From IMG/VR virus record IMGVR_UViG_3300020044_004940, positions 1 through 25,429 of that record: a DNA stretch of 25,429 nucleotides. One strand, written 5' to 3'. A program made the translations under genes and the position numbers. The number at the start of each line of letters is the position of its first letter. The first letter of the stretch is position 1. The notes beneath the pieces were generated by a model that searched no databases, was not told the origin of the DNA, and saw only the letters and a list, made by a program, of their open reading frames with translations. Shown here one piece after another: positions 8,339 to 16,217 of the stretch. Source of the DNA: a virus. Lineage: Duplodnaviria; Caudoviricetes.

Positions 8339-9505
8339 ATGGCCGACTTCAATTCAGCCTATACTGGCGCTCAGATCGATGCAGCTATTGCCGAGGCCCA
8401 GACAGCAGTTCAGCCGGGAGATCTTGGCACAGCAGCCGCAGCAGACACAACGGATTTTGCCACGGCGGCACAGGGTGCGCTCGCAGATAGCGCAGTTCAG
8501 CCCGGAGACGACGCCGCAAACCTCGGTTCTGGCACCGCCACGGACGGATGGGTGCTAACCGCTGATGGTTCTGGCGGTGCAGCTTGGGAAGCGGCATCGG
8601 GCGGTGGTGGAACACCAGGCGGGTCTGACACGCAAGTGCAATTCAACGATGGCGGCGCGTTCGGTGGTGACAGCGGGTTCACGTTCAACAAGACAGCAAA
8701 AACGCTGACCCTTGGCGGTGCGACCATTACGACGAGCAGCCCCGTCATTGCGATGGCTCAAACATGGAACGCTGGCGCGGTCACATTTACTGGGTTGCGC
8801 CTTAACGTCACCGACACCGCCTCTGCCGCTGGCTCCCTGCTGATGGACTTGCAGGTGGGTGGCACAAGCCAGTTCAGCGTAAGCAAGGCCGGCATCGCTG
8901 CCGTAATCAGTGGGGGCGGATATGCATTTTCCACTGATGTCTTTCTCCGCCGCGACGCAGCCAACACCCTCGCCCAGCGCAACGGCGTGAACGCCCAAGC
9001 CTTCAACCTCTACAACACCTACACCGACGCCTCGAACTATGAGCGTGGGTTTATGCGGTGGTCGTCGAACGTCTTGCAGATTGGCAGCGACAAGCTGGGG
9101 ACGGGGACTGCGCGAGATATAGATTTTTTGACCAACGGTCTAGCAAGAGCGCGTATTACATCAGACGGTACGTTCCGATCTCTAACTGGCTATATCTACA
9201 ACATAACCACAGTGACCGGGATATGGTCTAGTGTTTCTGGTAATTCGTATTTTGGCACTGAGAGCAACCACCCCATTAGCTTTAGGACCAACAACGTAAA
9301 CCGCGTCACGTTGGACACAGTGGGTTCTATTCAGATTGTCACTGCCCTCACGGTAGCAACCCTTCCTAGCACCCCGCTGACTGGCATGATGGCCCGCGTC
9401 ACGGATGCCACAACCCCGGTTGTAGGCTCGACCGTAACTGGGGGTGGCGCTGCTGCTGCACTGTGCTGGTATAACGGCATTAACTGGACTGTCATTGGAG
9501 TATAA
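8339..9505 (+). CDS. Tail/head fibre (receptor-binding) protein
   Basis: N-terminal 'YTGAQIDAAI', repeated AVQPGD, 'GWVLTADGSGGAAW' and 'PGGSDTQVQFNDGGAFGG' fibre modules, and repeated 'F.TN...R.(I/T)' beta motifs. Confidence 0.8.
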   Translation: MADFNSAYTGAQIDAAIAEAQTAVQPGDLGTAAAADTTDFATAAQGALADSAVQPGDDAANLGSGTATDGWVLTADGSGGAAWEAASGGGGTPGGSDTQVQFNDGGAFGGDSGFTFNKTAKTLTLGGATITTSSPVIAMAQTWNAGAVTFTGLRLNVTDTASAAGSLLMDLQVGGTSQFSVSKAGIAAVISGGGYAFSTDVFLRRDAANTLAQRNGVNAQAFNLYNTYTDASNYERGFMRWSSNVLQIGSDKLGTGTARDIDFLTNGLARARITSDGTFRSLTGYIYNITTVTGIWSSVSGNSYFGTESNHPISFRTNNVNRVTLDTVGSIQIVTALTVATLPSTPLTGMMARVTDATTPVVGSTVTGGGAAAALCWYNGINWTVIGV

Positions 9506-9512
9506 CCCCGAT

Positions 9513-9671
9513 ATGATCACCCTCAACCTCACTGACCAAGAACTCCAAGCCCTCGCTGGGCTGCTGGACGCTGGTGTGAAGGCCCTTGGCCTCCGCGCCG
9601 TGAAGGATGCCGCAACGCTTCTCGACAAGCTCGAAGAAGCCACCAAGCCAAAGGATCAGACCGATGACTGA
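9513..9671 (+). CDS. Small fibre-associated protein
   Basis: MITLNLTDQELQALAGLLDAGVK..., 52 aa, immediately after the fibre gene with GGAG upstream. Confidence 0.7.
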   Translation: MITLNLTDQELQALAGLLDAGVKALGLRAVKDAATLLDKLEEATKPKDQTDD

Positions 9672-9867
9672 TTACACCGTCCAGATCGTTGCCAACTACG
9701 TGCAGCCGACCACCGAGATTGCCACTGACGAAGGTTATGTGGACATGGTGATGAACATGGCGGCGCTGTCCTACATGGCTCAGTACGGCGTGGCTACCCC
9801 GGAAGAGGGCATTGCTGCTGCCCGTGCTGCCTATAACGCTGGCCTTGCTCCTGTAGCCTCTGAGTAA
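9664..9867 (+). CDS. Small hypothetical protein (possible fibre chaperone)
   Basis: AAGGA RBS, ATG 9664 overlapping the previous gene; good codon use. Confidence 0.7.
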   Translation: MTDYTVQIVANYVQPTTEIATDEGYVDMVMNMAALSYMAQYGVATPEEGIAAARAAYNAGLAPVASE

Positions 9868-9871
9868 GCCC

Positions 9872-10246
9872 ATGAGGATCACCTGCGCCGCCCCCGAAGC
9901 CCTCGTCTATGCCAGCAATCAGCTTGCCATGTGCCTCGCCTATGGCCCAGCAGATGGGGAAACCTATGTCGGCCTGAACTGGGTGGACGCTGACGGCAAC
10001 CTCTACGCTGCCACGTCCTTCGAGGCGCGTGATGAGTGGATCATCGCGGCACAGGCACCCCTTGTGCGGCCTGCGTGGGATACAGACGAGATCATCGACA
10101 TGGTGGCCGCAGAAAGCGCGCAAGATGTCTTGGTATTTAGCACTGAGGCTGTGCTAGCGATCCCCGGTCAACTGACGGCTATCGGTGGACCGAACGGGCC
10201 GGATGCTCTAGCTTTGATGGAACTAACGGCGGTTGCGGAGGCTTAA
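9872..10246 (+). CDS. Hypothetical protein
   Basis: 124-aa ORF tiling the operon between fibre-associated and lysis genes. Confidence 0.75.
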   Translation: MRITCAAPEALVYASNQLAMCLAYGPADGETYVGLNWVDADGNLYAATSFEARDEWIIAAQAPLVRPAWDTDEIIDMVAAESAQDVLVFSTEAVLAIPGQLTAIGGPNGPDALALMELTAVAEA

Positions 10247-10247
10247 C

Positions 10248-10493
10248 GTGCAAGGTGATTTGACGTTGTTGGAAGTGGGCAAGGCCCTGATGCAGTGGGT
10301 GATCATCCCTGTTGGCGGCTTTGTCTGGCTGATGTATCGGACGCAGCAGGATCATGCCACCAAGCTGGCCGTGCTGGCCGCCGTGCATGATGCCAACAAG
10401 GAAGCGCATGACCGCGAATTCAAGGAGATGCGTGAGAACTTCAAGGCAGTCTTTGCCAAGCTGGACAACATCGAGCAGGCGCTGAGAAAATGA
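10248..10493 (+). CDS. Membrane-anchored coiled-coil protein (holin/antiholin-like)
   Basis: GGAGG RBS then GTG at 10248; one hydrophobic segment (WVIIPVGGFVWLM) plus a coiled coil; ATGA overlap with the endolysin. Confidence 0.65.
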   Translation: MQGDLTLLEVGKALMQWVIIPVGGFVWLMYRTQQDHATKLAVLAAVHDANKEAHDREFKEMRENFKAVFAKLDNIEQALRK

Positions 10494-10930
10494 GGCCACT
10501 GTCTGAGATCATCATTCACTGCACGGCAACGCGCCCTGATTGGTGGTCGAAGAAAAGCACTGCGCAGAAGGTGGCCGAGGTGCGGCGCTGGCATATGGTT
10601 GATCGCGGATGGGCCGACATAGGATACCACCTGCTTATTGACCGCAACGGCGTTACCGTAGAAGGCCGGCCGATTGAAAAGGTCGGCGCCCACACGCAGG
10701 GGCGCAACACCGGCACGATTGGCGTGGCCTTGTTTGGCGGGCATGGATCGGCTGCAACGGATCGCTTCCGTGACCACTTCACGCCGCAGCAGGACATGAG
10801 CCTGCGCATTCTCATCACGGCTCTGCGGGCCAAATATGGCGCTCTGGCGCTGTCTGGCCATAACCAATGGGCGGCGAAGGCTTGCCCAGGCTTCAATGTG
10901 CCGAACTGGCACGCCCAAAAGGAGACCTGA
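10490..10930 (+). CDS. Endolysin, N-acetylmuramoyl-L-alanine amidase (Amidase_2, T7 lysozyme-like)
   Basis: 'IIIHCTAT', 'RGWADIGYH', 'GAHTQGRN' and 'GHN...KACPGF' provide the His/His/Cys Zn ligands. Confidence 0.95.
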   Translation: MRPLSEIIIHCTATRPDWWSKKSTAQKVAEVRRWHMVDRGWADIGYHLLIDRNGVTVEGRPIEKVGAHTQGRNTGTIGVALFGGHGSAATDRFRDHFTPQQDMSLRILITALRAKYGALALSGHNQWAAKACPGFNVPNWHAQKET

Positions 10931-10931
10931 C

Positions 10932-11099
10932 ATGGATTCTGCACAGATCGGCGGCATTGTCCGCGCACTGGTTGCCGCTGTCGGCGGCTATTTCGTCGGC
11001 CAGGGGTTGGTTGACGCTGAGACTGTCACCACCATTGGCGGCGCCGTTGCCACTCTGGCAGTGGCTGTCTGGTCGATCTACGCCAAGCGCAAGGGATGA
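10932..11099 (+). CDS. Holin (55 aa, two transmembrane segments)
   Basis: AAGGAG RBS; two hydrophobic helices and a basic tail (KRKG); adjacent to the endolysin. Confidence 0.8.
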   Translation: MDSAQIGGIVRALVAAVGGYFVGQGLVDAETVTTIGGAVATLAVAVWSIYAKRKG

Positions 11100-11302
11100 G
11101 GGCTGCGGTTGCGGTCATCAGCCAGATCGTCTGGAAGTTTCTGACGCTGTGGCTTGTTCGCGCGGATGCGGTGGCGGATGCCAAGCGCAAGTCTGAGGTG
11201 AAGGCGCATGACAGGATCAACGATGCGGATCTGGGGATCGGTGCTGCTGATTTGGACAACCAGCGCTGGCTGCGTGACTTCCACGACAGACACCGCAATT
11301 GA
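11096..11302 (+). CDS. Putative inner-membrane spanin (Rz-like)
   Basis: ATGA overlap with the holin, N-terminal hydrophobic stretch and charged helical C-terminus; overlapped by a lipoprotein ORF. Confidence 0.6.
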   Translation: MRAAVAVISQIVWKFLTLWLVRADAVADAKRKSEVKAHDRINDADLGIGAADLDNQRWLRDFHDRHRN

Positions 11303-11420
11303 CCGGCTACGCGTCCCGGCAGCGGCCCATGCAGAGGCTTTGGCTGGTGATGACATGACCAAGGCGAGAGCCACTGGCAGGGCGCTCCTAGCCTCTCTGG
11401 CGGCCTATGCTCAATGGTAA
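11223..11420 (+). CDS. Putative outer-membrane lipoprotein spanin (Rz1-like)
   Basis: MRIWGSVLLIWTTSAG-C is a signal peptide with a lipobox-like SAGC; starts in the +1 frame inside the Rz-like gene. Confidence 0.6.
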   Translation: MRIWGSVLLIWTTSAGCVTSTTDTAIDRLRVPAAAHAEALAGDDMTKARATGRALLASLAAYAQW

Positions 11421-11542
11421 CCTTCGCGCGGCATGAAGGCGGGATCGGCGTCTGGCGGAATGGCAAGCTGGTCGCTGTCATTCCGCGCGATAAGCTGCAC
11501 GAATTGATCTACCTGGCGGCAAGCGAATTGCGGGGATCGTGA
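11414..11542 (+). CDS. 42-aa hypothetical protein (not in the ORF track)
   Basis: MVTFARHEGGIGVWRNGKLVAVIPRDKLHELIYLAASELRGS; overlaps the o-spanin stop. Confidence 0.5.
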   Translation: MVTFARHEGGIGVWRNGKLVAVIPRDKLHELIYLAASELRGS

Positions 11543-11551
11543 GAAGTCGTT

Positions 11552-11641
11552 GAGGGGCCAAAGGTTTCCATTAACCAGGCCGTGGCGAACAAGATTAGTT
11601 TCGACCAGACACCGAACCGTTTGGGTCAGATGCGGCCCCTC
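11552..11641 (-). ncRNA. Candidate ~90-nt structured small RNA
   Basis: Ends pair as an 8-bp stem (GAGGGGCC/GGCCCCTC) enclosing internal hairpins; begins ~7 nt downstream of a sigma70-like -10 element. Confidence 0.5.
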
Positions 11642-11648
11642 GTCTGTG

Positions 11649-11677
11649 TTTTTAGCGGGTGGTTGTGGTGGGGGCAA
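11649..11677 (-). promoter_or_regulatory. Sigma70-like promoter for the candidate sRNA
   Basis: Minus strand TTGCCC (11677-11672), 17-nt spacer, then (GC)TAAAAA (11654-11649). Confidence 0.55.
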
Positions 11678-11680
11678 GGG

Positions 11681-11869
11681 TCATTCCCGCCCCCCTTCGC
11701 GCTGATCGGTGTCACGGCGATACGCATAATCGATATGTTCCTCTACCGCGTCCCAAGCGTCTTGAACGGCGGGCGTGCCTTCGGCGCGGATGGCCTTTCG
11801 CAGCACCTCAACCTCCGCGATCATCTTCGGCACGTTGCGGTTGCCGTATTTTGCGGGCGTGCGGTCCAT
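11681..11869 (-). CDS. Hypothetical protein
   Basis: MDRTPAKYGNRN...; GAGGGGGAG RBS; coupled to the upstream stop. Confidence 0.7.
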   Translation of the reverse strand: MDRTPAKYGNRNVPKMIAEVEVLRKAIRAEGTPAVQDAWDAVEEHIDYAYRRDTDQREGGRE

Positions 11870-12108
11870 CACTCCCCCTCCCCGCGCTCGTCCAGCGCGC
11901 GCAGGATGGCGGCGTAACACTTGGCGGTTCCAGACCAAAACAGCCAAAAACCGACTATCTGAAAGCAGGCGTCAAAAATTGCGCCGCCAGTGTCGCCCGT
12001 TGCCATGTATCGCTCATAACCTGCCGCACCTTGAACCATCATCCAAAGGCCCCAGCACATTGAGGCAACGTCATACATCTGGCGACCTATCAGCCCCCGC
12101 AGCGTCAT
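11869..12108 (-). CDS. Hypothetical membrane protein
   Basis: MTLRGLIG...; GGAG RBS, ATGA overlap, two hydrophobic Trp-rich segments. Confidence 0.6.
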   Translation of the reverse strand: MTLRGLIGRQMYDVASMCWGLWMMVQGAAGYERYMATGDTGGAIFDACFQIVGFWLFWSGTAKCYAAILRALDERGEGE

Positions 12109-12344
12109 GGCTGTTTCTCCGTGATCAGGGCAGCGTCTAACCGCGCCACAGCTTCCCAATGGGCAACCGTGGTGTTTGCCGCCTTGTAAGCTGCCCAAGC
12201 GTCACCCGCATCTCTCAGCGCCTCGGCCCGCGCGTCGGCGGCGGGGATGGCGCGGATGGATGCTTGCGCGTTGCGACCGTAAATGTCACCCCAATCAAGG
12301 GCCTTCAGCGCATCCCCGCGCCGGATCAGATCGTCGTCACCCAT
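12105..12344 (-). CDS. Hypothetical protein
   Basis: 'DDLIRRGDAL' N-terminus, a pattern common in phage accessory genes; GGAGG RBS. Confidence 0.75.
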   Translation of the reverse strand: MGDDDLIRRGDALKALDWGDIYGRNAQASIRAIPAADARAEALRDAGDAWAAYKAANTTVAHWEAVARLDAALITEKQP

Positions 12345-12837
12345 CCTTGCCTCCTTCGCTGATGGCGGCGTTCACCGCTGTTTGCACCGATTTTGCGCAC
12401 GCTTCCAAGGCGGCAAGCCACACACCGGGCCTGTCGTCCGGCCACTGAGGGCCTTGGCAAACGGTTGTGCGCAGAACAGCCTTTGGCATGTCCGCCAGCG
12501 CCTCTTCCAACCGCGCCACCTTCCGTTCCAGTGCCGCGTAGTTTTCAGACCAGACGGCGATCTCCTTCTCGTGGGCCTTGGCGTCTTTGAGTGCCTTGGC
12601 CTCGGCGGCTTCGGCGCGGAGGATGTTTGTTGCGTTTTCTTGCAAATTCAGAAGCGCCAAGGCCTCATATTTGTCCCGCTCCGCCTCCAACTCACGGATG
12701 GCGGCGGCGGCTTGTTCCAGACGCTCGGCATTGGCTTCATGCAGCCGCTTTGCCAGTCGGGAAATGGCTTGGGTCGCGCCGTCCCGGTCGCGTCTGGCCA
12801 TGCGCTCAAGGTGTTCGCACATGTCGGCGTATTTCAT
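12337..12837 (-). CDS. Coiled-coil hypothetical protein
   Basis: AAGGAG RBS, ATGA overlap, heptad-rich sequence. Confidence 0.75.
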   Translation of the reverse strand: MKYADMCEHLERMARRDRDGATQAISRLAKRLHEANAERLEQAAAAIRELEAERDKYEALALLNLQENATNILRAEAAEAKALKDAKAHEKEIAVWSENYAALERKVARLEEALADMPKAVLRTTVCQGPQWPDDRPGVWLAALEACAKSVQTAVNAAISEGGKDG

Positions 12838-13589
12838 GGCGTCGGCTCCTTAATCTTTGCGAGGGCGGCGTCCAGTTCCTGCCACGCGGTATCAGCATAG
12901 TCCGGCATGTGGCGCATAACGCCCTTCGCCGCCTCAACCAGTTCCGCCATCACGTCAGGGGCGGGTTCATGACCAGACTCTCGCACAATTGCAGGAGCCA
13001 GCGCCCTGCACAGCGCATCCACGCCATACAAGTGGATGATCTGCTCCACGGTTGGCTTGGCGATTGTCCCGCGAAGCATGTTCTGGTGAACTGCAACTGG
13101 ATCAGCAAGGCCAAACTCAACGTTTAGCAGTTCGGATTTAGCGGCTTTGAGTTGCCTGATTGTTTCGTTGGACAAAGCCATCGCGTCATCACGTTCCTGC
13201 TTGGCCTCCACCAGTTCCGCTACCTTGGCTTCGGCGGCTTCAAGATTGGCTGACACGCCGCGCAGGGTGGCAAGCGTTACTTCGCGCAGTTTGTCCTGCT
13301 GACTGGCAGCAGACAGCGCCGCATCCCGTTCCTCCACCAGTTCCGCCACATCGACCACATCGATAGCGGCCATGATGCGGGCGGCGTAGTCGGCTTGCGC
13401 GGCGGCTTTGGCGGCTTCAAGGGTGGGGTAGGTTTTGCAATCTACGTTCAACCACCACCCATCATGCTTTTTGTGCGCGGCAATGGGCGCAAAACTGACG
13501 GGGCTTCGGGTTGAAAAGCATTCGCCTTTCCTGCGGTTCCCATCATTGGTTTCTCGCCACACCAGCGGCTTCACACGCGCATCACTCAT
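12834..13589 (-). CDS. Modular hypothetical protein
   Basis: 'VKPLVW...TLEAAKAAAQADYAARI' module followed by a coiled coil with three AELVE repeats. Confidence 0.75.
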   Translation of the reverse strand: MSDARVKPLVWRETNDGNRRKGECFSTRSPVSFAPIAAHKKHDGWWLNVDCKTYPTLEAAKAAAQADYAARIMAAIDVVDVAELVEERDAALSAASQQDKLREVTLATLRGVSANLEAAEAKVAELVEAKQERDDAMALSNETIRQLKAAKSELLNVEFGLADPVAVHQNMLRGTIAKPTVEQIIHLYGVDALCRALAPAIVRESGHEPAPDVMAELVEAAKGVMRHMPDYADTAWQELDAALAKIKEPTP

Positions 13590-13794
13590 CGCTGCCATCC
13601 CCATTGCTGTCGTCGCTCATGGAGTCAGAAGAAGCAGACCCCGAACCGTTGTGTCCACCATCAACTGCTCCGTCAGGATGATGAACCAAGAGAGAAGAAT
13701 GATCAGAGCGATCCATCTGCACATGGTGGTTTTCCTTTACGTAGATATGCGGGGCGCAGGCGGCGAGGGGGAGGATCAGGAGCAGGTGTTTCAT
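13582..13794 (-). CDS. Small lipoprotein
   Basis: MKHLLLILPLAA-C carries a canonical LAAC lipobox; His-rich then Ser/Gly/Asp-rich tail. Confidence 0.7.
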   Translation of the reverse strand: MKHLLLILPLAACAPHIYVKENHHVQMDRSDHSSLLVHHPDGAVDGGHNGSGSASSDSMSDDSNGDGSDE

Positions 13795-14006
13795 TCTGTC
13801 AATCCTTCGGGTCTGGGTTGCGGTCTGATGCTGCTCGACGGCACGTCTGTCTCCTCGCAGTTAATGCTGTGGTCATAGTCCAGCGTCTCGCTGACGGGGT
13901 TCAGCGCGGCCTCGCAGGATGCCAACGACTGATAGGCTATGGCGGTGGTTTCGGCATCCAGGTCAGTGCCGAGGATGGTGATCCACATTATGGTCCACCA
14001 AGTCAT
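13791..14006 (-). CDS. Hypothetical protein
   Basis: MTWWTIMWITILG..., 'Y.S...CEAA' plus a second Cys, ending 'SIRPQPRPEG'; GGAG RBS. Confidence 0.7.
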   Translation of the reverse strand: MTWWTIMWITILGTDLDAETTAIAYQSLASCEAALNPVSETLDYDHSINCEETDVPSSSIRPQPRPEGLTE

Positions 14007-14224
14007 CACGCATCTCCGCTCAAAAACGTGTTGAAGTCCTCGTCCTGCACGGTCGCACCCCGGCAGGTCGCCTTGCTGCGGACATTCGCTGAAAACAAAG
14101 CGTCGTCTTGGTGAAACTGACCACCCCAAGAAGACACTGCATCAGCAACATGCATGGCAATGTCATGCTGGTCTACGTGATCCAAGGTTTTGACCGATAC
14201 GGTCACTCGATAGACTGGCATCAC
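14006..14224 (-). CDS. Hypothetical protein
   Basis: 72-aa ORF coupled to both neighbours. Confidence 0.7.
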   Translation of the reverse strand: MMPVYRVTVSVKTLDHVDQHDIAMHVADAVSSWGGQFHQDDALFSANVRSKATCRGATVQDEDFNTFLSGDA

Positions 14225-14307
14225 ATCCCCCCCGGCGAAAGCATGATGTAGACCATGCTGGACATGGCGGCGGCGAAGATGATGCAGGCGAGGATTTCGC
14301 GGATCAT
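14221..14307 (-). CDS. 28-aa hydrophobic peptide (not in the ORF track)
   Basis: MIREILACIIFAAAMSSMVYIMLSPGGM; AAGGA RBS, with ATGA and GTGA overlaps at the two ends. Confidence 0.6.
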   Translation of the reverse strand: MIREILACIIFAAAMSSMVYIMLSPGGM

Positions 14308-14477
14308 TTATTCATTTCCTTCAGTGCGCGCTCTAGGATGATTTCCGCGCGGTTACGTCCAAAGCGCTCGGCCAAGATGCTGGCCAGCAATTCAGATATT
14401 TCGCTCGGCTCAAACTTGGCCAGAGCCATGCTTAACAGGCGCCGGTCTGCTGCTGCTGCGATTGCGCCACGGTTCAT
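14304..14477 (-). CDS. 57-aa hypothetical protein (not in the ORF track)
   Basis: MNRGAIAAAADRRLLSMALAKF...LKEMNK; AAGGAG RBS and ATGA overlaps at both ends. Confidence 0.7.
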   Translation of the reverse strand: MNRGAIAAAADRRLLSMALAKFEPSEISELLASILAERFGRNRAEIILERALKEMNK

Positions 14478-14725
14478 GCTTGTTGCTCCTTGATCTTGGC
14501 GAGGGCGGCACGACGATTCCAGAACTCAACCGCCTGCGCCTTTGTTCTATGGCCCATATGGCCCGACATATTCGTGATGCCGCAGCGTGGGCAATTGCAG
14601 AAGAATGCTTCGGTTATTGGCGATCCGTCATCCCAGGCAGTTTCTGCGCATGGCTTGGGATAGAAGACGTATCCCGTATCGCTGGCCTCGCCCCCGCAGA
14701 ACGGGCACGGCAGAAGATCACTCAT
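14474..14725 (-). CDS. Lar-family restriction alleviation-like Zn-finger protein
   Basis: 'LLPCPFCGGEA...CPRCG...AVEFWNRRA' family signature. Confidence 0.85.
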   Translation of the reverse strand: MSDLLPCPFCGGEASDTGYVFYPKPCAETAWDDGSPITEAFFCNCPRCGITNMSGHMGHRTKAQAVEFWNRRAALAKIKEQQA

Positions 14726-14913
14726 ACCGCACCTATCGCGGCTGTGATGGCTGCCGCAACGGCTGCGCCCGTGCCGCCTGGCAGGAACAGCGTGACGGTG
14801 TTGCCGTCTTTGTCTGACACCCTCACCGCGCTGAATGGGTTGCTGTAATCACCAGCGTCATGCTCAATGACAGATGCAGTGGCAGGTTTGTGCAGGTTTA
14901 CGCTGACGGTCAT
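14722..14913 (-). CDS. Hypothetical protein
   Basis: GAGGTGG RBS; ATGA overlaps. Confidence 0.7.
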   Translation of the reverse strand: MTVSVNLHKPATASVIEHDAGDYSNPFSAVRVSDKDGNTVTLFLPGGTGAAVAAAITAAIGAV

Positions 14914-15110
14914 GCGACCACCTCATACTCTGCCGGCAGGCGGCGGGTGATGTGGATCTCGTTGGCCTCATCGCGGCTGTGGGCGGTGATGATGCTCTGC
15001 GGGCCTGCGAAGTTGCGCGCCAGCACGATGGAATTCATCACGGCCATCGTGCGCCAGTAGCCGGCCCCGCGCGTGTCGGTCGAGTAGTCGGAGACAATGT
15101 AGTGGGTCAT
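14910..15110 (-). CDS. Hypothetical protein, first gene of the leftward accessory operon
   Basis: 66 aa, downstream of the leftward promoter candidate. Confidence 0.65.
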   Translation of the reverse strand: MTHYIVSDYSTDTRGAGYWRTMAVMNSIVLARNFAGPQSIITAHSRDEANEIHITRRLPAEYEVVA

Positions 15111-15144
15111 TGTGTTTCTCGGTGGTTAGCGTTTCTATGCCCCA

Positions 15145-15172
15145 ACCATACCACCCCCGCCGCATCGTGCAA
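15145..15172 (-). promoter_or_regulatory. Leftward sigma70-like promoter
   Basis: Minus strand TTGCAC-N16-TATGGT. Confidence 0.5.
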
Positions 15173-15186
15173 CACAAATATGTGGA

Positions 15187-15215
15187 TTGACCGCAGAAAA
15201 ATGCATGGTCATCAT
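15187..15215 (+). promoter_or_regulatory. Rightward sigma70-like promoter preceding an ORF-less structured region
   Basis: TTGACC (15187-92)-N17-CATCAT (15210-15). Confidence 0.5.
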
Positions 15216-15221
15216 CCGGCG

Positions 15222-15356
15222 AATTGGTGGCGCATTTCTGCGGTAGGTATCACGGCCCTTCGTCACAACAAGCTTGCATCCGTGCGCCACGGGCGGGGTA
15301 GCCTTCTTAGTAGCGGATGCCGGAAACGTGGGAGCGCCCCCTGCCAGAGTGGGGGC
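15222..15356 (+). ncRNA. Candidate structured RNA or long leader
   Basis: Stems GTGGCGCA/TGCGCCAC, GCATCCG/CGGATGC and GCCCCC/GGGGGC; no credible ORF. Confidence 0.4.
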
Positions 15357-15357
15357 A

Positions 15358-15386
15358 TTGCCCTTTCCCCAGCGCATGGATATTGT
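15358..15386 (+). promoter_or_regulatory. Sigma70-like promoter for the RHH gene
   Basis: TTGCCC-N17-TATTGT, 20 nt upstream of ATG 15407. Confidence 0.55.
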
Positions 15387-15406
15387 GTGGCAAAATGGGG
15401 AAACAC

Positions 15407-15562
15407 ATGGCCACCTACCGCAAAGACCCGTCTGGAAATATCAGCAAAACCATCCACTGCCGCCTGACCGAAGAAGAACACGCCGCCATCGTGGCGAAAG
15501 CCGACGCCGCCGGGCTGTCCATCACCAAATACGTCGTCCGGGCGTTGCTGGCTGCTGAGTGA
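15407..15562 (+). CDS. Ribbon-helix-helix DNA-binding protein (CopG/MobC-like)
   Basis: 'TIHCRLTEEEHAAIVAKADAAGLSITKYV' fits the RHH strand-helix-G-x-S-helix pattern. Confidence 0.8.
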   Translation: MATYRKDPSGNISKTIHCRLTEEEHAAIVAKADAAGLSITKYVVRALLAAE

Positions 15563-15783
15563 TGATTGTCCGATCTAAGCCGGAAAAAGAATGCCTGCGG
15601 ATCGGAGCAAGCGGCGCAGAGCCTTCGCACAAGCAAAAGCTGGCCACGATCATCGACGTGCATGAACTCAAGGGATACATGCTCCACCTTCACCGGGAAG
15701 GCATGCTAGACGATGCCGCACGGGCAGACATAGCCAGCCGCCTAGCTGATCTTGAAGCGTTCTATGGCCGCAAGTTTGCCTGA
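15559..15783 (+). CDS. Hypothetical protein
   Basis: GTGA overlap with the RHH gene; 74 aa; converges on the VRR-NUC gene. Confidence 0.65.
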   Translation: MMIVRSKPEKECLRIGASGAEPSHKQKLATIIDVHELKGYMLHLHREGMLDDAARADIASRLADLEAFYGRKFA

Positions 15784-16217
15784 TCGCTAGACGCCAGCCA
15801 CGCGCCAAGAGCCTGCCAAGCGGCGTCACAGCCAAGAGCCACGCAGGCAAAGGCACCAACCCCAGCAGCAGCCTCAAGATACTCGCGCTGCCCGTCCTGC
15901 CATCGCCCCTGCGTAGGATCGCGGCGCTTCAATTCACAGACAAACGTCACCCGCCCAGGGATGATGATGTCGGCGGCCCCCGGCGTCATGCCTTCGGCCT
16001 TGTGCCTAGCAACGGCACGAAGCTGGCCGCCTGCCCGCAGGCCCTCGTTGCGCGGATGAATGGCAAGCGCGCCCCATGTGCTGGGATATTCTCGGCGCAG
16101 GCGATTAAAGAACGTGATCTGCTCTTGGCTTTCGGCGGCGCATTGCCCGCGAAAACCTATGTCGCCAAATGTCACCACGCCACGCTCGGCCAGTTCTTGG
16201 AAGTCACTCAGCCGCAT
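15762..16217 (-). CDS. VRR-NUC domain nuclease
   Basis: 'HPRNEG...KAEGMTPGAADIII...FVCELKR...QREYL' PD-(D/E)XK pattern; GGAG RBS before ATG 16217. Confidence 0.85.
   Translation of the reverse strand: MRLSDFQELAERGVVTFGDIGFRGQCAAESQEQITFFNRLRREYPSTWGALAIHPRNEGLRAGGQLRAVARHKAEGMTPGAADIIIPGRVTFVCELKRRDPTQGRWQDGQREYLEAAAGVGAFACVALGCDAAWQALGAWLASSDQANLRP

Follow-up and report, generated by a model that had tools for sequence, protein, structure and literature searches.

The region at positions 11552 to 11677 of a 25,429-nt viral sequence (the window; IMG/VR record IMGVR_UViG_3300020044_004940, 61 % completeness) raises the question of whether a free-standing small RNA gene lies between two phage operons and, if so, to which family it belongs and on what it acts. 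The window derives from a podophage of alphaproteobacteria, with annotated portal, capsid, amidase, holin, helicase, primase and recombination genes, and a capsid protein sharing 71 % identity with its counterpart in Octadecabacter Antarctic DB virus 2 points to a probable host among the Rhodobacteraceae. The late operon (+) terminates with the spanins followed by an unannotated 42-aa ORF (11414–11542, +), the accessory operon (−) terminates at 11681, and the RNA element lies between them. The first-pass annotation, which placed the element between the lysis cassette and the accessory operon, was thus correct in the location, with the amendment that this unlisted ORF intervenes. The ORF overlaps the spanin stop, lies outside the RNA unit and occurs in eleven variants (88–98 % identity). 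It could be assigned to no Pfam, PHROG or Atlas family, no longer form was found and no Atlas match exceeded 0.78; it is missing beside the RNA in other phages, and missing from the close relative L010. The last accessory gene (11681–11872, −), with its stop codon 4 nt before the -35 element, is replaced by other genes in relatives. Accessory genes at 11676–12340 are exchanged as modules in natural populations, with Logan contigs joining positions 11676, 11680, 11709–11713, 11911–11914 and 12108–12128 to sites further on; in contigs from freshwater, aquatic and soil runs, these genes are swapped at 11676–11711 and positions 11634–11678 are kept. A GC-rich hairpin (11670–11695) covers the -35 element together with the stop codon that ends the accessory operon, and is retained with small deletions in the metagenome contig L214 and not in other members of the family described below.

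Within the window, a predicted 90-nt RNA (11552–11641, −), matched by covariance models, is preceded by a predicted -35 element (TTGCCC, 11672–11677, −) and a predicted -10 element (TAAAAA, without the final T, 11649–11654, −), with a 17-nt spacer between the two and 7 nt from the -10 element to the first stem. This closing stem, P1, comprises 8 bp (11634–11641 with 11552–11559), with the predicted start at or near 11641 and no U-tract after its 3' strand. Taken alone the sequence is suggestive only, since the folding z-scores of the 90 nt are equal on both strands (−2.43 on the minus and −2.42 on the plus strand, a modest gain over shuffled sequences), there is no Rfam match, and the promoter fails a strict scan with the E. 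coli consensus. A hidden ORF was rejected because single-base indels between homologs change the frame, which agrees with the earlier statement that no credible ORF is present. An intrinsic terminator was also rejected, with the single plus strand candidate (11627–11646) broken by two changes in L214 and 1.7 candidates expected by chance in the region. No RNA run is listed among the public runs holding the element; one run labelled as RNA, probably DNA, contains a single contig over 11637–11678 and has no bearing on expression either way.

Comparison among phages yielded a family of seventeen loci, comprising sixteen distinct sequences of 72 to 102 nt with 58–97 % identity to the window copy. 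Members occur in 13/80 capsid relatives, whose capsids are 83–96 % identical to that of the window, in two metagenome contigs and in one unrelated HTVC023P-type phage. The RNA was absent from the stretches searched, many of them fragments, of 53/53 relatives with capsids 73–79 % identical. A search with the 42-aa ORF led to the metagenome contigs L214 (RNA 97 % identical) and L215 (68 %), while a pattern drawn from blocks common to the sequences found gave 62 viral matches, of which one, L251, is a true homolog. The latter shares nothing besides the RNA with window positions 9000–16000, has a portal of the HTVC023P/CRP-901 type and carries the RNA between terminase and portal. With a covariance model that drew only on L251 and L215, the window element was retrieved at 55 bits (E 1.5e-9), and rebuilt models were used to search the 80 capsid relatives. 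Amidase and spanin relatives were without the element, blastn against INPHARED (five members) and PLSDB (one member) gave chance matches only, with one match inspected, and other exact-pattern scans gave chance matches or none. There was no match in 401 alphaproteobacterial genomes searched with the pattern or in 150 searched with the model under strict filters, an absence that applies to the genomes covered. A different element of ~100 nt, unrelated to the family by blastn, is found in L034, L074 and L094 (601–706), the three copies having an identical 8-bp closing stem and a common internal core. The window element is very probably a real small RNA gene. The first-pass proposal of a stand-alone ~90-nt minus strand phage RNA with its own sigma70-type promoter is supported by the seventeen-locus comparison, with transcription inferred from it, and the promoter letters, spacings and 8-bp stem quoted there were confirmed in the sequence, with promoter and closing stem recurring in 17/17 loci.

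In the podophage loci the RNA sits where the late (+) and accessory (−) operons converge, with both neighbouring genes varying, and in most of those inspected it lies 4–13 nt from the last late stop codon. This position, together with the missing U-tract after P1, would suit a cis-acting device at the operon junction, with a promoter directed against the late operon's end and a folded 5' end that makes an antisense transcript more stable or prevents read-through. Such a device is unlikely in view of the opposed genes, which differ between loci (the 42-aa ORF, a ~380-aa gene, a head gene and a tail-region gene), the HTVC023P-type phage, where the RNA runs in the same direction as the next gene, and the close relative L010 (75 % identical over the lysis cassette), in which the spanin stop abuts the accessory operon and no RNA is present; furthermore, interference needs no invariant loop letters. 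A role tied to the lysis genes, as had been suggested, is likewise unsupported because the genes next to the RNA differ from phage to phage. No gene accompanies the RNA across loci as a partner. Action in trans may be expected, given that the unit is retained next to genes that are unrelated between phages and whichever way it is oriented to the following gene. Several observations concern the surrounding genes. The ~380-aa gene (L138, 6600–7742; L315, 2262–3419), which has a weak metallophosphoesterase match, comes after the spanins in several relatives, in place of the 42-aa ORF of the window. In L136 (10001–11212) the capsid gene match extends over 1212 nt vs 954, suggesting that ~260 nt, perhaps a small intron, have been inserted. 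L139 has an additional ORF (13917–14699, −) downstream of the RNA and co-directional with it; its beginning is rich in Cys and His, and it may represent an insertion of the homing-endonuclease type.

The strand of the RNA is indicated by the promoter. The motif TTGC..-N17/18-TA.... occurs on the minus strand 6–9 nt upstream of the stem in 17/17 loci, and on the other strand in 0/17; the final T of the -10 element is present in none. Although the pattern was defined after inspection of the initial set (12/12 on the RNA strand and 0/12 opposite, with a background of 0.15–0.4 % of positions), it recurred in the loci found later (5/5 vs 0/5), four of which represent a new lineage. The spacers are unrelated across six lineages, with 2–8 of 17 letters in common between lineages. 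According to the available portions of the studies consulted, more than 60 % of alphaproteobacterial sigma70 promoters are without the final -10 T and retain the TTG (PMC8407463; features also cited to PMC7703639), and the absent T seen here fits promoters of this type. Initially the RNA had been read on the plus strand, on the basis of G-U patterns in four sequences, and two models were built accordingly. The score of this reading was reached by 39/500 shuffles, and it was dropped because eleven sequences broke its fold and the promoter pointed to the minus strand. Hairpin P2 folds better on the promoter strand in 17/17 loci, through G-U pairs, and whole-sequence energy favours this strand in 9/11 members and in only 2/5 of those found later. 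These features bear on the proposal that the locus is an untranscribed inverted repeat acting at the DNA level (MITE-like, or an operator), for which the paired ends, the changing neighbours and the so far only predicted transcription could be cited. It is very improbable given the strand preference of P2, a cUUCGg loop in L215 and a strand-specific promoter motif which has been rebuilt from unrelated flanking DNA.

The RNA is modelled as a three-way junction of P1, a variable 5' hairpin (P2) and a long 3' arm (P3) with a CGCYA loop. In all members P1 is paired (7–9 bp) and has two-sided changes. In the window, P2 occupies 11609–11633 in the minimum free energy fold, and has a variable length and 5' strand and a semi-conserved 3' strand. 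The long, interrupted P3 arm has (U)GGU/ACC(A) at its base, the window's UGGUCG block lying at 11602–11607 and the ACC, predicted internal partner of GGU and present in 17/17 loci, at 11563–11565; its upper part (UAAUC/GGUUA, 11572–11597) carries the apical CGCCA loop (11587–11583). Among the loci, GGUC and CGCYAC are invariant (17/17 each), UGGUCG is found in 12/17, UGGU in 14/17 and CGGU in 3/17, with the loop containing CCA in 8/17 and CUA in 9/17. Five members (L138, L313, L140, L142 and L149) fold alike on the promoter strand (z −3.0 to −5.5), and the five later members fold likewise. In an unguided alignment of eleven sequences the named pairs were 91 % paired, compared to 35–51 % in slid controls, and four pairs showed two-sided change, a count reached by 0/500 shuffles, a control that related sequences can beat. 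Unguided consensus folding of sixteen sequences recovered P1 and the apical helix, with compensatory changes including G-C to C-G, two G-C to A-U and C-G to A-U. Instead of P2 and the base of P3, this consensus gave a G-U-rich helix between the 3' strand of P2 and GGUC, an alternative possible in all sixteen sequences. The ACC/GGU pairing has a probability above 0.9 in 6/11 members and 0.00 in the window, the base and apex of P3 have probabilities near zero in the window, L214 and L251, and in the window the family fold is 4.1 kcal/mol less stable than the minimum energy fold.

The family folds and compensatory changes support the three-way junction postulated from the window alone, and the homolog gathering and covariation check proposed with it produced the seventeen loci and the four two-sided pairs. 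The two internal hairpins described at that stage are amended, with the first now pairing GCAUC.GACC with GGUU.GGUGU (11633–11609). The GGUC that had been assigned to this first hairpin belongs to the base of the second, and the UAAUC/GGUUA helix taken for the second hairpin is the middle of a longer conserved arm. The paired GAAAC tracts do not survive as a feature, as GAAAC is present in 8/17 loci and only 3/17 have two. The compactness of the three-way junction, its invariant letters and its position in intergenic DNA of phages could also bring to mind a new class of self-cleaving ribozyme. This is highly improbable, with no Rfam ribozyme match and with a promoter of its own at the first paired base, which would not be expected. 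Hammerhead cores consist of CUGANGA and GAAA, and the former is missing from the window element.

The two invariant blocks, GGUC and CGCYAC, are the complements of the 3' end and of nucleotides 7–12 of alphaproteobacterial tRNA-Pro. The sequence CGTRGCGCAGTCTG, the reverse complement of the majority form of the apex, occurs in 38/151 alphaproteobacterial genomes (five for the reversed control), and 22/24 of the matches fetched correspond to tRNA-Pro nucleotides 6–19. At the other block, tRNA-Pro ends in CGACCA, the complement of UGGUCG, and only the three Pro tRNAs among the forty of one genome end in GACCA. The variable loop base (Y) faces position 9 of tRNA-Pro, which is A in sixteen and G in fourteen of thirty loci, matching loop U or C. 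Fourteen contiguous perfect pairs are possible in 6/11 members, a number reached by 0–1/200 shuffles; the 14-mer is carried by 8/17 loci and is largely one inherited event. The match to tRNA-Pro was recognised post hoc. When motif pairs of the invariant lengths were drawn at random, 28 % hit one tRNA, 1.0 % did so with the first motif at the 3' end and 0.07 % fitted both loop variants as well, the figure being 0.005 % for the majority lengths. A Pro tRNA was the top cofold partner among forty tRNAs in 11/14 members, including 5/5 of those found later, in a tRNA set from a single genome chosen for having the 14-mer and with the Pro-UGG rank helped by the resemblance of P1 to that acceptor stem. 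The window copy is the weakest match (seven plus six pairs with tRNA-Pro); its longest complement, of 10 nt, is to tRNA-Leu (27/200 shuffles), and Pro ranks fifth among its cofold partners (−3.2 kcal/mol). The most diverged lineage has eight plus six pairs, and three members have C where the last A of the tRNA needs U. Nucleotides 8–12 are buried in the folded tRNA. The order of the two blocks differs from that of a simple inversion of tRNA-Pro. The codons CCA, CCC and CCU make up 140 of the 260 Pro codons in nineteen window genes, and neither the window nor one complete relative yielded a tRNA gene. Blocking tRNA-Pro would thus be costly to the phage, as these tRNAs read many of its Pro codons and no phage tRNA gene was found.

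The reading tentatively ranked first is that the RNA binds host tRNA-Pro and withdraws its uncharged or immature form. In the mechanism envisaged, host RNA polymerase would transcribe the ~90-nt RNA, likely early, from the first G of P1, and the 3' end would be trimmed back to the stem, as no terminator follows. At the weak base of P3, the ACC(A) of the RNA itself would be displaced by the ACCA end that is free in uncharged or immature tRNA-Pro, so that the arm could open and its loop and 5' strand invade the D-arm. Uncharged tRNA-Pro(UGG/GGG) might then be withdrawn from ProRS, Rel or a tRNA-sensing defence. The fuller claim, that the RNA is a phage-encoded anti-tRNA clamping the CCA end and D-arm of tRNA-Pro through a T-box-like contact in trans, and that promoter and RNA have moved together as a unit between unrelated phages of alphaproteobacteria, is more tentative still. 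A doubtful though possible alternative is a protein-binding decoy or scaffold, in which a defence or regulatory protein of the host binds the RNA through its invariant loop and junction letters, with the match to tRNA-Pro being coincidental or reflecting an origin from an inverted tRNA-Pro fragment. An anti-defence decoy, like the antisense reading considered below, was among the first-pass proposals, and both are kept as rivals. This would be consistent with the invariance of only short blocks on arms whose lengths vary (72 to 102 nt), with the window copy and four diverged members keeping the fold with 7–8 nt of tRNA complement, and with the sharing of the RNA by two unrelated phage types. 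It offers no partner gene accompanying the RNA, however, and does not account for the fit of a single tRNA to the two invariant blocks as well as to the variable loop base.

Phages cut, replace or supplement host tRNAs by means of proteins and tRNA genes. No phage RNA binding one host tRNA species by base pairing was found in the available portions of the literature searched. If the tRNA-Pro reading is true, base pairing of an RNA with one host tRNA would be a new way to steer translation, and such an RNA could silence sensors of uncharged tRNA and serve as a compact programmable tool. Even without this mechanism, the locus provides an uncatalogued structured RNA family with a mapped promoter and a size suited to probing and pull-down. 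The comparative evidence argues that this phage small-RNA family is real, with a well-supported promoter and fold, while the tRNA-Pro target is attractive and unproven.

As regards known RNA families, the element belongs to a structured RNA family without a catalogue entry, behind its own predicted promoter. Rfam gave no match on the element at the gathering thresholds or at E ≤ 10 in the window region and eight member loci, or at E ≤ 5 in three more, in agreement with the first-pass annotation, which could assign no known family. ARAGORN or Rfam detected no tRNA or tmRNA genes in the window and eighteen member loci or stretches. The TIGR, retron, attC and Y RNA classes were considered and do not fit, as judged from their general features. 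The family is not described in the available part of the results of a 2026 intergenic survey, and it may equal an unnamed cluster in the COMPASS cluster database (10.64898/2026.10.21.760802). The vrRNAs, in the accessible text of the reports, contain nine to sixteen YNNGG repeats with hypervariable NN and a fixed 3' tail (10.64898/2026.04.26.720920; 10.64898/2026.10.15.759431). Like the orphan VIPR RNAs described there, the present RNA is a ~100-nt stand-alone phage RNA with no adjoining protein gene and with GGY words, but by inspection it has at most three such words, inside stems. A neighbouring vipr gene is not required of orphans; family annotation of 36 and 30 window ORFs revealed no RAMP-like family. 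SorX and SorY of Rhodobacter are similarly sigma70-type, trans-acting small RNAs of the likely host group, and differ in having an intrinsic terminator and a C/U-rich seed, of which the present RNA has neither. In the HTVC023P-type phage sequence L311 (1398–1461, +), a SorX/SorY-like seed and terminator lie directly upstream of the RNA's promoter; the match (31.9 bits, E 4.7e-4) is below the gathering score of 46.6, and the phage may carry here a copy of a stress sRNA from Rhodobacter.

The C4/CI RNAs (RF01695), with which kinship had been suggested, act by base pairing on targets in the leader of the same phage, upstream of the antirepressor, and are cut from a precursor by RNase P. They resemble the present RNA as phage RNAs of 80–90 nt with paired ends and two internal hairpins, but their closing stem has 17 bp, their two hairpins have 5 bp each and their 3' junction is unpaired. 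The present RNA has a 7–9 bp stem, a long interrupted 3' arm, no adjoining antirepressor and a promoter of its own located at the first paired base; with the predicted start at P1, RNase P processing would be unnecessary. C4 is tabulated as non-cis-regulatory in the accessible part of PMC2864571. The suggested kinship was not borne out, as RF01695 (gathering threshold 45 bits) had no match at E ≤ 10 in the window region and eight member loci, or at E ≤ 5 in three more, and the P4 positive control scored 74.9 bits. An antisense RNA that acts in trans on mRNA in the style of P1 C4 or P4 CI, and takes its seed from the CGCYA loop or the GU-rich P2 strand, would share this size class and paired ends and would account for the conserved exposed loop. 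It ranks below the cis device and is likewise unlikely, considering the differing architecture and the lack of a common 10-nt target word in nine phage records, most of them incomplete and two of 32–38 kb.

Among known systems the T-box bears directly on the tRNA-Pro reading. T-box RNAs carry UGGN, complementary to the NCCA end of the tRNA. A T-box-like sensor, in which UGGU reads the uncharged tRNA end, a loop CCA serves as proline specifier and alternative helices act as the switch, would draw on the UGGU of most loci, the CCA loops and the alternative helix open to every sequence. It is nonetheless improbable, as the majority loop triplet is CUA, specifying Leu, there is no Rfam T-box match and no terminator, and most loci have no same-strand gene directly downstream: what follows the RNA in most is the antisense strand of the late operon, with no terminator or ribosome-binding-site switch before a regulated gene. 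The present RNA also differs from T-boxes in having no Stem I and no regulated gene, in a second contact that would be with the D-arm and not the anticodon, and in being a stand-alone phage gene in an alphaproteobacterial setting. What it shares with the T-box antiterminator is the UGGN/NCCA complementarity, N here being U, which fits A73 of tRNA-Pro.
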